Shown in pieces: positions 48,517 to 62,374 of a DNA stretch of 64,000 nucleotides. The first letter of the stretch is position 1, and the number at the start of each line of letters is the position of its first letter. This DNA comes from a virus. Location: the IMG/VR virus record IMGVR_UViG_3300043465_002420. The stretch is one strand, 5' to 3'. Both the position numbers and the translations under genes were made by a program. The notes below the pieces were generated by a model. It ran no database searches. It was not told the DNA's origin and was given only the letters and a program-made list of their open reading frames with translations.

Positions 48517-48985
48517 GACTATCTACAACCTTTGTGGTCATTTTACATCTGTTTTTATCAGCATCTAAAAATTCGTCTAAATTTTTAACACTTATAAGCG
48601 ACCAATGAGGATCATCCAATGGAACATATTCTTTTTTTGTGTAATAAAATGATTCCATTGTATACCTATAAACTTTATTCTCAACCTCTTCATCGGTCAT
48701 ACCACCAATTAAATCTTCACAAACTTCTTTACAAATTTTAATCGCATCTTGGTCTGTTGCACATCCTAACTTTCTCATAACTTGAACGGCAGCAAGTGCT
48801 TTATCTTTTTGCAAAAGATCTATAATGTTTTTTTTCATCATACCATCAATGAAATCTGCCCTTGCCATAAAACGAGCCATAATCTGACCTCGCTTTGGAG
48901 CAAATCTCCTCACATCAAAAAAATACTGCTCAAAGTTTTTTTCGTCAATAATCAATTCTTCAGACATTTTTTTCCTCTTTTGCAT
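48491..48985 (-). CDS. Hypothetical protein
   Basis: 164-aa ORF overlapping the dnaE C-half end. Confidence 0.6.
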   Translation of the reverse strand: MQKRKKMSEELIIDEKNFEQYFFDVRRFAPKRGQIMARFMARADFIDGMMKKNIIDLLQKDKALAAVQVMRKLGCATDQDAIKICKEVCEDLIGGMTDEEVENKVYRYTMESFYYTKKEYVPLDDPHWSLISVKNLDEFLDADKNRCKMTTKVVDSLDEKKQNE

Positions 48986-51701
48986 AATTTGAAAACTGTT
49001 CTAAAATTTCTTCTTCAGATAAATATTTATCTTCTTCAACTTCAGCAGGTTTCATCAAATATACCCTATAATCAGTTTCCTTCGTTGGAAACTTATAGAC
49101 CCATCTTTGATTAGGCAATTTTTTATTTTGCTCTAATGTGTATGTTGGAAACCCTTTATCTGGTGGCTGTAATCTTAATCTAACTAAGTTACCTTGTTCT
49201 AATTCTGAACCCCATCTTTTAAGATCGTCTTCCCAAATGTTTATTTTATTTTTTTCTCCCAAAGCATCTTCTACCTCCAATTGACAATAAGTTGTTCCTT
49301 TTTTACTTTTACACATTTTTTTAACAACTATTTCTACTTCAACTGGACAAATAACACCAATGTTTTCTTTGAATGCTTCGAATGTGTAACCTTTAAAATC
49401 CTTGCTCTTTTCCAAATTATGAGTCCAAGCAAATCCATAATACTTCATTTCACAAGCTACAATGCTTTTAAGTTCCTTTTCAAAATTTGGATCAATTTCA
49501 TAATCATTAGGATTAAATGCTTCGATAGTAGGTAACAATAATTTTTTAGACTCTTCAAGTCTTTCGATGCTTTTTAAATTTCTAACCCAAAGCTTTTTTA
49601 ATTCCTTTAACCTATTGAACACTTTATTAGTCTTTGTGATTTTATAATATCTTGTTTTTTGAACTTCAATAAAATCTTCAGTTCCTTCAATTGGAACATA
49701 AGTAATTTCCAATTTAGGTTCACCCTGACCCTTTTCACATTCGAATTTTCTTTCTGATTCTACCATTTCATTTACATCGTATTTTTCCCACTCGTCACCA
49801 TCAAATGGATTAGCTCCATGAAAACTATTCAACAATCTTGTCTCGTCAGGAAAAAGCTCTTTAAATTCTTCTTCGTATTGCGACATACTAACAGCGAATC
49901 TTTTCTTTTTATCTTCTATCTTTCTCGCACATTCTTTGTAGTGTTCGTAAAATTTCCACAATGTGATTGGATCAGATTCATTAAAACACCTCAATCCAAT
50001 CAAGCATTTTATAACACTAGCATCTGTGCCAAACTTAAAAAGAAAATCTCCAAATCCATTATATGGTTGACCAGAAACAATTTTTTCCGCTGGTGCTTCT
50101 CCAACACCCTTTATATTTGACAAGCCATAATAAATAACATCATCTATAAGCTCAAAATTTTTCTTAGACTTATTGATGTCAATCTTGTGCATCTCTATGT
50201 TGTGTCTTTTTGCTTCCATTTTATAGTCTTTAATCTTTTCGCTTAATGTTTCACAACTTAAAACGGCAGCATAAAACTCATGAGGATAATGAGCCTTTAA
50301 ATATAATAGACGAGAAGATACATAAGTGTATGCTACGGAATGACTTAGGTTGAATCCGTATTCTGCGAATGATTTTATCTGATCGAATAAATTGATTGCT
50401 TCTTCTTCAGATATGTTAAGATTTTTTTGACCTTTCTCTATGAACATAATTTCATATTTTTTAAAAGCCTCCGCTTTCTTTTTTGAAATAGCCTTTCTAA
50501 CAATTTCACAATCTCTGAATGGTATTTCTCCAACAACATTCAAAATTTTCATAATTTGCTCTTGGAAAACCATAACTCCATAAGTTTTTCCAAGAATAGG
50601 TTCAACAAGAGGATGCAAACTATATTCTTCGTTGCCCTTCTTCCTCTCAATATATCTTTCGTGCATTTTCATGTTCAAAGGGCCAGGCCTATAAAGAGCA
50701 GTGTATGCAACCAAATCCTCAAATGAATCAACCCCACCAGACCTAACTAATTTTCTAATGCCTTCCGAATCAAATTGAAAAATACATTTTAAATCGCCTT
50801 CATTTGCCATCTCTAGAGCTTTAGAATCATTACGCCATTTGATGATATCTGTCCAATCAGATTGGTTTGGCATGGCACAAATACTATCAATTGACTTTCT
50901 TCTTTTTACCAATTCACAACATTTACTGATTTGCATCAAATTAGAAATTACAAGTAAATCAAACTTAACCAATCCTACTGGTTGTAAATCTTGACCATTA
51001 AGACCTTCAACCCATGCAGATGCTTGTGGATTGTCTTTTCTCTTAACCAATGGAACAAGATCGTGTAGTGGAATAGAACTTATAATCAAACCACCAGCAT
51101 GTTGGCCCATACCTCTATTTCTATTTATAAGTCTTTTGGCTGCGTTTGATACATCTGGATACTTTTCACAATACTCTTTCAATTTTGGATATTGTGATAG
51201 TGCCACATCCCAAGTCAATGGTTTTCCCTCATCATCTTTTGCTTCAAGCTCTTTTGTAAGTTCAAGTATTTCTCCTCTTGCCTCTCCATGGACTCTAGCC
51301 ATATCAATCAAAGCACTCTTCATGCCAAATGTTGTGTAATTGCCAATATTGCAAACATATTCTTCGCCAAATGTTTCAGAAGCCCACTTGTTTTTCAAAT
51401 AATCTCTAACTTCAGAAAGATAATCGACATCAATATCTGGCATATCTCCTTGAACAAACTTAGGATCTTTATTGATATCAAAATCATCAACTATGCCCAA
51501 AATGTATGGAACTAAGATATTATTTTCATTCTTGGGGAATTTTTTCTTTTCTTTAAATAAATTCAAAAAATATTCTGACTTTCCTTGAATGTCAATTTCT
51601 TTAATTTCCCACTCAAGTCTTTTTTTATGCTTTTCACATAATTGTCTTCTTTTAAAGATGTGCCATAAAAGCTGTTCGATTTTTTGAACTGTCGTTAACA
51701 T
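48960..51701 (-). CDS. dnaE: DNA polymerase III alpha subunit, C-terminal half (split gene)
   Basis: MPDIDVD, GQHAGG, KFDLL, FQFDS, LYRPGP, VFQEQ, YGFNLSH, LKAHYP, GLSNIKGVG and C-terminal OB fold; no PHP domain. Confidence 0.95.
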   Translation of the reverse strand: MLTTVQKIEQLLWHIFKRRQLCEKHKKRLEWEIKEIDIQGKSEYFLNLFKEKKKFPKNENNILVPYILGIVDDFDINKDPKFVQGDMPDIDVDYLSEVRDYLKNKWASETFGEEYVCNIGNYTTFGMKSALIDMARVHGEARGEILELTKELEAKDDEGKPLTWDVALSQYPKLKEYCEKYPDVSNAAKRLINRNRGMGQHAGGLIISSIPLHDLVPLVKRKDNPQASAWVEGLNGQDLQPVGLVKFDLLVISNLMQISKCCELVKRRKSIDSICAMPNQSDWTDIIKWRNDSKALEMANEGDLKCIFQFDSEGIRKLVRSGGVDSFEDLVAYTALYRPGPLNMKMHERYIERKKGNEEYSLHPLVEPILGKTYGVMVFQEQIMKILNVVGEIPFRDCEIVRKAISKKKAEAFKKYEIMFIEKGQKNLNISEEEAINLFDQIKSFAEYGFNLSHSVAYTYVSSRLLYLKAHYPHEFYAAVLSCETLSEKIKDYKMEAKRHNIEMHKIDINKSKKNFELIDDVIYYGLSNIKGVGEAPAEKIVSGQPYNGFGDFLFKFGTDASVIKCLIGLRCFNESDPITLWKFYEHYKECARKIEDKKKRFAVSMSQYEEEFKELFPDETRLLNSFHGANPFDGDEWEKYDVNEMVESERKFECEKGQGEPKLEITYVPIEGTEDFIEVQKTRYYKITKTNKVFNRLKELKKLWVRNLKSIERLEESKKLLLPTIEAFNPNDYEIDPNFEKELKSIVACEMKYYGFAWTHNLEKSKDFKGYTFEAFKENIGVICPVEVEIVVKKMCKSKKGTTYCQLEVEDALGEKNKINIWEDDLKRWGSELEQGNLVRLRLQPPDKGFPTYTLEQNKKLPNQRWVYKFPTKETDYRVYLMKPAEVEEDKYLSEEEILEQFSNYAKEEKNV

Positions 51702-51724
51702 GTTTTCGCCTTAAAATGAAAATT

Positions 51725-60960: not shown

Positions 60961-61011
60961 AAAATTAATATAGTTTTATATTTTTATTTTTTTGATTTTT
61001 AAAAATATTTT

Positions 61012-62374
61012 TTATAAATCAAAACAAATAGATCTACCGCCTCTAGCCTCAGACATGAATCGACTAAACAAAAGACCTTCAAATACTGGATCAACATCAG
61101 TAATTCCAAGACAATAGCAAATCAAAGAACCACAAGCACTTCCCCTGCCTGGCCCCACAGCTTGAGTTCCATCACCACCTATATTCTCTTTGCACCACTT
61201 TCTTGCCTCATCAGTCATCATTTTTTGAATAAGAAAATATGTACTAAATCCTTTTCGAGTAATAAGACTTAATTCTTCAATTATTCTGTCTTTATATTCT
61301 TTGGTCTTAGGCAAGTTTCTCTGCTTGAATCCTTGTATGACTAAATCTTTAAGCTTTTCGTCACAATCAGGCAAAATTGGTAATTTTAAACTTCTATCAA
61401 GTTCAACTCCTTTTGCCATTCTGCAAATCTCTACTGTATTCTTTTTAGCTTCACAAAAAATTTCATATGGAATAACATCACTATAATCTTTAGCCCATTT
61501 TTCGTTAAGTTCTTCCTCTGACTTCATCCATAAGTTGGCATCTTGCAATTCAAAAAAGTCTTTCATGGCATCTTCTTTCATTGCCTTTTGAATTTCTTGA
61601 ATTGTTCTATTTGTCTGTACCATTAACATAAGTCTTTGAAAGTGACTATCTTCCTTTCGACAATAATGACAATCATTTGTAAGAATTATTTTTAATTTAT
61701 ACTTTTCATAAGCCTTGATGATAAATGCATCATAAGGCTTTTGTTTGACAAAATCTAAAAGCATAATTTCAAGAAAATAATTATCTCTACCAAACATCTC
61801 AATGTATCTTTCAATCATTTGAAATGCAGCTTCTTCACCACCAGAATCAAATGCTCTACCAACTTCGCTGTTATAGCAACAACTAGTAAAAAACAAACCT
61901 TCTTTATGTTTCTCAAGTTGTTCGTAATTTACTCTTGGCTTTCTATAAAATCCTTTTGTCCATCCCCAAGATGTAAGTCTTACTAGGTTTTTATAACCTA
62001 TTTCACTATGTGCAATCGCAAGAAGATGTGGACTAGCTCTCAATTCCTTTAATTCTATTTCGTTTAAGTTTTTAGAGAAATTTTGCATGTCTTGCAAAGA
62101 ATCACTTGATGGCTGTAACCTATTAACATATAGTTCTGCTGCGAATATAGGAGAAAGTTTGTTTTTACCAAACTTATCACAAATTTTCTCACAAGCTTTT
62201 ATTTGTCTTGGAACAGCACCCAACATGCCATGATCACTAATAGTTAAAAAGTTTTGATTGATTTGGGTAGCTCTGAGTGAATATTCCTCACAAGTACCAA
62301 ACCCATCTAAAACAGAAAAATCGGAATAACTAATGAAGGTGGAGATGTTCGAAACCGACAATCTCCACCTTCAT
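61012..62374 (-). CDS. dnaE: DNA polymerase III alpha subunit, N-terminal half (PHP + start of palm); frame interrupted at 62326-62332
   Basis: ATG 62374 with GGAG RBS gives MKVEIVGFEHLHLH then TAG. The main frame continues SDFSVLDG, DHG, ELY, NDCHY, GPGRGS, LGITDVDP, FSRF. Confidence 0.9.

Follow-up and report, generated by a model that had tools for sequence, protein, structure and literature searches.

In group 2.2 of the T4-like jumbo phages a minimal DNA polymerase III (Pol III) alpha subunit is split into two stand-alone proteins from distant genes, one a nucleoside triphosphate (NTP)-binding half and the other a Mg/DNA-binding half, which together are predicted to restore the enzyme (Iyer et al. 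2021, Viruses 13:63, PMC7824862). This minimal Pol III consists of the core nucleotidyltransferase and template-binding parts, has no PHP or other Pol III domains, and is found alongside a family B polymerase (PMC7824862). In cyanobacterial DnaE and other fractured genes the dnaE pieces carry intein halves, and in some cases a stand-alone gene for a homing endonuclease separates them (Dassa et al. 2009, PMC2677866). Replication genes of T4-like phages, namely nrdA-a/nrdA-b of Aeh1 (mobE) and gp43A/gp43B of phages 25 and 44RR, form two cistrons with no intein (Edgell et al. 2010, PMC2988022). Enzyme activity from two chains is known for the split NrdA of Aeh1 and for gp43A/B of phage 25; these splits are attributed to endonuclease-gene insertion or an untranslated spacer, and no duplicated junction was reported for them (PMC2988022). 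Here we describe a locus in 64,000 nucleotides of viral DNA from IMG/VR record IMGVR_UViG_3300043465_002420 (the whole analysed stretch, called the window below) in which a phage dnaE is encoded as two intein-free genes cut through the catalytic centre.

The locus resembles each of these systems in part. As in the split Pol III of the jumbo phages, the break lies between the NTP-binding and the Mg/DNA-binding subdomains. However, the present DnaE is full-length, with PHP, palm, thumb, fingers, HhH and OB parts, it carries a duplicated junction module on both halves, and it has intact sister genes, which show the split to be recent and derived. No match to the family B polymerase family PF00136 was found in the 165-kb record, which is ~34% complete. 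The pieces of split-intein dnaE are broken at other sites and ligated into one chain, whereas the halves described here have no intein motifs, so the chains stay separate. With the T4-like genes in pieces the present dnaE shares an essential replication enzyme, two cistrons and the lack of an intein, and some relatives hold mobile DNA in the gap, as those genes do (a LAGLIDADG gene, in the gap of L007 only; L numbers are our designations of related loci and contigs). Those genes, however, belong to other enzyme families (ribonucleotide reductase and family B polymerase) and reassemble into active enzyme, while for the present dnaE reassembly is an expectation drawn from sequence, and its gap holds former upstream neighbours of dnaE. 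In the literature we found no description of a full-length, intein-free DnaE split like this one.

Two dnaE genes on one strand

The source record is 165 kb long with a CheckV completeness of ~34%, which implies a huge phage, and the analysed window has a G+C content of about 30%. Its dnaE consists of two separate minus-strand open reading frames (ORFs), here called the N-half and the C-half (Table 1), with an intervening gap of 9,310 nt that holds eight ORFs, the majority on the opposite strand. Pfam assigned PHP (PF02811, 2.4e-29) and positions 2–98 of DNA_pol3_alpha (PF07733, 1.4e-24) to the N-half, and PF07733 positions 100–259 (7.8e-27), the finger domain PF17657 (2.7e-40) and HHH_6 (PF14579, 3.4e-12) to the C-half. 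The PF07733 model is divided cleanly between the halves at position 99; the full DnaE domain set is present across the two chains, and the catalytic core is not on a single polypeptide.

A preliminary description of this DNA had the N-half end after GRGS...LGITDVDP...FSRF, and this is what its translation gives (...GPGRGS...LGITDVDP...FSRFMSEARGG, then RSICFDL and a stop). In the C-half an 85-residue leader precedes PDIDVD at residues 88–93. The ribosome-binding site (RBS) and extended −10 element claimed for the C-half were found as well, and the gene upstream of it is divergent, on the other strand, so that the C-half cannot share a transcript with the N-half. A feature that the preliminary description missed is that the N-half is not one clean ORF: a TAG follows codon 14 and the frame returns 7 nt on. 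The N-half ORF as listed has 449 residues counted from a TTG at 62361.

Table 1. Features of the split dnaE locus and its surroundings in the window
Feature	Position	Strand	Details
SpoVR-like gene	63104–64000	−	PF04293, 6.6e-22; immediately upstream of the N-half
N-half start and candidate recoding cassette	62326–62386	−	RBS aaaggag 62386–62380; ATG 62374; 14-bp hairpin; insert TAGTTAT 62332–62326
dnaE N-half	61012–62374	−	PHP and N-terminal, NTP-binding part of palm; ATG 62374; stop 61012–61014
Junction module, copy O	61015–61368	−	N-half residues ~332–449; helices, GPGRGS loop 61138–61155, FSRF arginine, tail RSICFDL
Lineage-specific cargo	53931–60960		GT2 glycosyltransferase, 426-residue ORF, 1454-residue STIG1-like Cys-rich protein, terminator, two small minus-strand ORFs
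Bidirectional terminator hairpin	60203–60237		16 bp; after the STIG1-like gene
STIG1-like gene	55840–60204	+	1454 residues; ten STIG1-like cysteine-rich repeats (PF04885, 6.9e-40)
Gene G	52854–53849	+	331 residues; acidic DMSDEDE repeat tail; by tblastn in gaps of 36 loci
Divergent gene upstream of C-half	51771–52142	+
Promoter-like element and RBS of C-half	51709–51733	−	Extended −10 TGaTATAAT 51733–51725; RBS AAGG 51712–51709; from sequence
Junction module, copy O'	51447–51701	−	C-half residues 1–85; helices, NENN loop replacing the G-S loop, without FxRF
PDIDVD catalytic strand	51423–51440	−	Equivalents of E. coli D401/D403
dnaE C-half	48960–51701	−	913 residues; leader, metal-binding palm, thumb, fingers, HhH, OB fold

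Position of the break relative to the active site

To place the break we built two profiles, A1 from 18 N-half ends and A2 from 19 C-half starts. In hmmsearch A1 matched E. coli alpha at residues 312–396 (E 1e-16), and A2 matched it colinearly at residues 313–417, weakly on its own (E 0.44); both halves thus cover E. coli residues ~312–396. GPGRGS and FSRF of the N-half are the equivalents of E. coli R362-G363-S364 and R390, and PDIDVD of the C-half is that of the catalytic aspartates D401 and D403, with the lysine and third aspartate (KFD) further downstream. These residues together we take, from the E. coli and Thermus structures, to be the active site of Pol III alpha. The break comes after the equivalents of R390 and R396 and before that of D401, inside the palm domain as first described. 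Since the N-half holds GPGRGS and FSRF and the C-half PDIDVD and KFD, the break separates the NTP-binding from the metal-binding half of the Pol-beta-like palm.

A duplicated junction module with complementary losses

The same region of the polymerase is present on both chains. Profile comparison of A1 with A2 by hhalign gave a probability of 91.9 and an E-value of 7e-7, with N-half residues 332–377 aligned to C-half residues 3–46. A single pairwise BLASTP of the two halves gave no significant similarity at the junction (E 2.6), and Pfam found no match to PF07733 positions 1–98 in the C-half leader, which is therefore a degenerate copy. When the C-half was searched by tblastn against intact phage DnaEs its matches began at residues 2–17, and on the relative LR756511, whose dnaE is intact, ~95 codons are matched by both halves. 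The degenerate second copy that the preliminary description saw at the C-half start is thereby confirmed by profile and by overlap.

The two copies have lost opposite motifs. R406, G407, S408 and R434, the R-G-S residues and the arginine of FSRF, are invariant in 28 N-halves, and this invariance extends down to 52% identity. In the C-half leader a conserved N-E/Q-N-N loop stands in place of the G-S loop, and FxRF is gone. Conversely P88, D89, D91, D93, K246 and D248 are invariant in 54 C-halves. The R-G-S residues and FxRF arginine are thus invariant in N-halves only, and the D-x-D, the lysine and the third aspartate in C-halves only, a pattern that bears out the duplication with complementary loss suggested earlier. 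It also makes an active site built from two chains the most likely arrangement. The PHP metal ligands (D19, H44, E76, H112, C162, D230 and H232) are all invariant in N-halves. Many N-halves end in a short tail of alternating hydrophobic residues (e.g., MKLRF or LQLEF), which may, with low confidence, be a degenerate remnant of the catalytic strand.

It should be considered whether the halves are joined after all into one polypeptide, by a split intein, a trans-spliced intron or long read-through. Relatives do carry such elements elsewhere in dnaE: there are true inteins, L008 has a split intein and a LAGLIDADG gene, and L040 and L056 have group I introns. Even so, joining is very improbable here, as genes on the opposite strand lie between the halves and the joined product would contain the junction module twice. 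Pfam found no intein domain in either half, and no His-Asn-Cys/Ser/Thr junction precedes PDID in the C-half alignment. The N-half tail after GG is seven residues here and variable in length among relatives, and the C-half leader is homologous by hhalign to DnaE itself. Neither end therefore bears split-intein motifs, in agreement with the preliminary description. An intron or trans-splicing element was also sought with Rfam over positions 47500–63500 at E<=1, which gave no intron and only a chance match to an L20 leader.

Distribution and selection

Two scans of IMG/VR gave 58 related loci. About 30 contigs have both halves visible, and in every one the N-half ends at the identical position. 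The C-half starts 1.0 to 9.3 kb downstream of the N-half, with a gap of ~13.1 kb in two contigs (L012+L006 and L058+L005); L035 has its C-half on the opposite strand. A contig of 99% identity from another sample has the same 9.3-kb gap. The 120 best clusters matching the C-half in a collection of 5.8 billion proteins (54–97% identity) all lack PHP, and the contigs behind them reach 602 kb. A sister group (LR756511 and L066–L069), at roughly 50–60% identity, has dnaE intact. The survey of related phages thus shows the split to be clade-wide, and the identical layout across many independent assemblies excludes misassembly.

Both halves are maintained genes under purifying selection, not wreckage, as judged from low ratios of non-synonymous to synonymous substitution rates (dN/dS). 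For the N-half, dN/dS was 0.08 between the window and L010/L012 (dS ~1.05–1.1) and 0.007–0.13 in other clean pairs of varying dS. For the C-half it was 0.017 against L004 (dS 0.19) and 0.11 against L005 (dS 1.38). The C-half leader, at a pN/pS of 0.36 versus about 0.20 in the rest of the C-half, is more relaxed yet constrained.

These data bear on a further explanation, that the locus is a decaying broken gene or an assembly artefact. The stop after N-half codon 14 would suit it, as would the origin of the record as a metagenomic fragment. We find this barely credible, however, given that ~30 contigs from many samples, including the 99%-identical one, have the same layout, that dN/dS is 0.02–0.13 with all catalytic residues invariant, and that the early stop sits within a conserved hairpin cassette.

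The distribution also has a practical side. Widespread annotations of these halves read “DNA polymerase III alpha” or “hypothetical”. Automated annotation will count the polymerase wrongly, and the early stop will lead it to misplace the start of the N-half. The stand-alone halves phrog_7513, phrog_13169 and phrog_12219 in PHROG hint at further split cases. Several cultured phages that might have shared the split do not. The dnaE genes of Enterococcus phage vipetofem and Agathobaculum phage AB434P2 are contiguous. Genes 55 and 56 of Microbacterium phage Karate (L064 3980–7331) lie 10 nt apart with the break after the PHP domain, and gp166 and gp164 of Bacillus phage vB_BauM_KLEB27-3 (L073 5467–9837) flank an HNH endonuclease gene at another site.

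Predicted structure and the proposed two-chain polymerase

We propose that the replicative C-family polymerase of this phage is made of two separately transcribed and translated chains that probably associate non-covalently. The N-half would contribute PHP, with probable proofreading, and the NTP-binding half of the Pol-beta-like palm with its G-S loop and FxRF arginine. The C-half would contribute the metal-binding D-x-D strand, the lysine, the third aspartate, the thumb, the fingers, the HhH and the OB fold, and the active site would be built from both chains. The C-half copy of the junction module would be kept probably as a folding or docking element. We infer the physical heterodimer and an active site composed of two chains from conservation together with strong purifying selection; the leader's role is likewise inferred.

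AlphaFold2 (AF2) models of the single chains fit this proposal in part. In the C-half model, which has a predicted local distance difference test score (pLDDT) of 79, confidence is high for the four helices of the leader and for the thumb, fingers, HhH and OB fold, while the palm beta-sheet segments 83–124 and 194–245 fall below 50. The N-half model (pLDDT 78) has a confident PHP barrel and palm helices, with the tail 434–449 below 50. The low-confidence palm sheet and N-half tail fit parts that need a partner chain. By VIA-align the C-half aligns from residue 1–3 with the Pol III alpha structures 7pu7, 2hnh and 3e0d at Z 20–23 (over 285..909 of 2hnh and 356..1125 of 3e0d), and its residues 770–887 match OB folds at about Z 9.

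Several observations weigh against a heterodimer. In the AF2 model of the C-half as a single chain, the leader lines up from residue 1–3 onward with the palm helices in their canonical place in solved Pol III alpha structures; were it to lie there in reality, the corresponding helices of the N-half would have a competitor. The invariant asparagines of the NENN loop could point to a role of the leader's own. A shallow alignment of 54 sequences may account for the low pLDDT of the palm sheet. The full-length N-half would be made only by a putative recoding event at codon 15, and the record, at ~34% complete, leaves room for another polymerase elsewhere in the genome.

The leader in particular invites another explanation, in which the C-half is self-sufficient, the NENN loop replacing the G-S loop, and the N-half is a separate PHP exonuclease whose palm remnant serves docking only. 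Such a subunit would be similar to epsilon, which serves E. coli alpha as its proofreading subunit. The main argument for it is the leader itself, which folds confidently in AF2 and is aligned by VIA to canonical palm helices. N58, N60 and N61 of the leader are invariant or nearly so, and the conservation of all PHP metal ligands in N-halves would suit an exonuclease subunit. The invariant R-G-S and FxRF arginine of the N-half, however, would be unnecessary in a mere docking remnant, the leader has no equivalent of R390, and the palm sheet is the least confident region of the C-half model. We therefore regard a self-sufficient C-half as unlikely and favour the two-chain polymerase.

Should the two chains indeed form a single active site, Pol III alpha would have a natural, permissive split point between the G-S loop and D-x-D. 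With the minimal Pol III of other jumbo phages, an unrelated split, counted in, this split point would be recurrent. The locus would then offer a system for studying the assembly of a replicase in trans and for engineering split polymerases without inteins.

The start of the N-half

Phage T4 gene 60 is translated by bypassing a 50-nt gap, and the start of the N-half has a similar layout. The ATG at 62374 opens 14 codons, MKVEIVGFEHLHLH, running through HLHLH, and is followed by TAG at 62332. The 14-bp hairpin runs from the ATG to the His-14 codon CAT (62335–62333), and the window's cassette folds at −34.5 kcal/mol with a z of −3.7. Deleting the 7 nt TAGTTAT restores the canonical HLHLH-SDFSVLDG, with the frame resuming at TCC GAT. 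The PHP H-x-H is encoded upstream of the putative recoding site.

We compared the distance from HLHLH to the [F/Y]S[V/L]LDG motif across relatives. The canonical 6 nt is found in 16 lineages. Inserts of 16 distinct sequences, each starting with TAG or TGA, lengthen it by 5, 6, 7 or 8 nt. Of these 16 short inserts, 13 have NAY, near-cognate for a His tRNA leaving CAY, as the triplet that precedes the resume point. A 12–14-bp hairpin ending at the take-off codon was present in all 14 distinct short-insert 5' regions versus none of 21 insert-free ones, with minimum free energies of −18 to −25 kcal/mol. EHLHLH is kept with solely synonymous changes in all insert-bearing lineages. The mini-insert also occurs in L010, L012, L015, L017, L020–L025, L035, L036, L039, L045, L046, L048, L049, L052 and L055.

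Together the 5–8-nt insert and the hairpin look like a candidate programmed ribosome hop in the style of gene 60. Both have a stop after the take-off codon, a hairpin at take-off and a landing codon before the resume point; in the window the counterparts are CAT-TAG, a 14-bp stem that reaches as far as the CAT, and, just ahead of the resume codon, the near-cognate candidate landing triplet TAT. The gap here is 5–8 nt (40–41 nt in L008, L022 and L029) versus 50 nt in gene 60. The full PHP domain, and probably normal N-half yield too, would depend on this cassette. An alternative genetic code would not help, since decoding the TAG as an amino acid leaves the PHP frame unrestored.

The halves might instead assemble with an N-half made from a downstream start, lacking the first PHP His-x-His and hence exonuclease activity. 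The TAG after codon 14 is in frame with the ATG and its strong RBS, and the TTG at 62361 does open the long frame. This TTG is without a usable RBS, however, and a downstream start would leave unexplained the synonymous conservation of EHLHLH, the hairpin in 14 of 14 insert-bearing versus 0 of 21 insert-free sequences, and the NAY triplet, near-cognate for His tRNA, before the resume point in 13 of 16 inserts. We consider it quite unlikely. Taken jointly, an obligate heterodimer with an active site completed in trans, a docking module and an N-half made only through a 7-nt ribosome hop is a combination that we put forward tentatively, its chances falling somewhat short of even. If true, replication in this phage clade would rely on two rare solutions together, an intein-free split active site that came from permutation by duplication and programmed translational bypassing.

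Other insertions are found close to this point. Inserts of 40–41 nt with a strong G+C hairpin lie two codons further, after [S/T]-D, in L008 (7606–7645), L029 (~6792–6831) and L022 (~9963–10003); lengths of 40 and 41 nt are in different frames, so that no single frameshift rule explains both. In L044 (~6637–6642), L050 (~10022–10027) and L053 the Leu codon of SVL-DG is followed in frame by a 6-nt insert, TAA-CTA or TAA-CTT, and the resulting CTT TAA CTA GAT GG has a Leu take-off and landing codon pair around the stop. Group I introns (RF00028, 91 and 102 bits) stand just before the LDG codons in L040 (9767–9992) and L056 (9769–9996). This PHP motif is a hotspot for mobile elements.

Gene order and origin of the split

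In five intact-dnaE sister phages the gene order is spoVR-like, G (opposite strand), X1 (an AAA+ ATPase), X2, X3, dnaE, and in many lineages of the split clade it is spoVR-like, N-half, G (opposite strand), X1, C-half. Compared with the intact sisters, the upstream neighbours as a block have traded places with the 5' portion of dnaE. Gene G is the sole gap gene conserved across the clade, with a conserved N-terminal region of ~200 residues; it has no family match in Pfam or PHROGs, and nothing usable came from the ESM Atlas. It lies 2.5 kb upstream of the intact dnaE in LR756511 and likewise just upstream in L066–L069. The SpoVR-like gene is syntenic in the split clade and in the intact-dnaE sisters alike.

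This arrangement fits a split that arose once, in the ancestor of a large huge-phage clade, by permutation by duplication. The block [G-X-5' dnaE] would have been duplicated in tandem and the outer copies then trimmed, moving 5' dnaE upstream of its neighbours and leaving the ~85-residue junction module on both halves. The two module copies would then have lost opposite motifs, with an intact polymerase available at each step, and the gap would later have collected cargo and mobile DNA. Tandem duplication with trimming gives exactly such an arrangement, that is, a swapped gene order with the module present twice, and the position of G and X1 upstream of intact dnaE in the five sisters lends independent synteny support to the duplication origin that the preliminary description had suggested. 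The locus is an unusually clear case of natural gene fission via duplication, degeneration and complementation, with the ancestral order kept in the sisters. A homing endonuclease was considered as the cause of the split; no endonuclease family was found by Pfam or PHROGs in the gap ORFs of the window, and synteny favours duplication and rearrangement.

In the lineage of the window X1 has been lost from the gap, and a GT2 glycosyltransferase, the 426-residue ORF and the STIG1-like gene have been gained. These cargo genes are common only to the closest relatives (L004–L006, L009–L015, L033/L034/L054 and L058). The STIG1-like gene stands in a stretch of 45% G+C within the 30% G+C genome.

Other breaks and mobile elements in relatives

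The dnaE genes of the relatives carry additional elements. Full-length transfer-messenger RNA genes (RF00023, 112 and 151 bits) lie in the dnaE gap of L040 (13703–14061) and L056 (16721–17096). In L008 (9935–14175) the C-half is broken again at residue ~452, with an apparent split intein. The first ORF continues CVTKDN... and the third ends ...VISRN before SHAVAY, with the free-standing LAGLIDADG gene (11610–12710) between them. This is the fractured-gene layout of Dassa et al. 2009, at another site. Other relatives have contiguous C-half inteins (PF14890/PF14528), and others again have breaks at C-half residues 343–369 or at N-half residues 72–104, 203–231 and 406–414.

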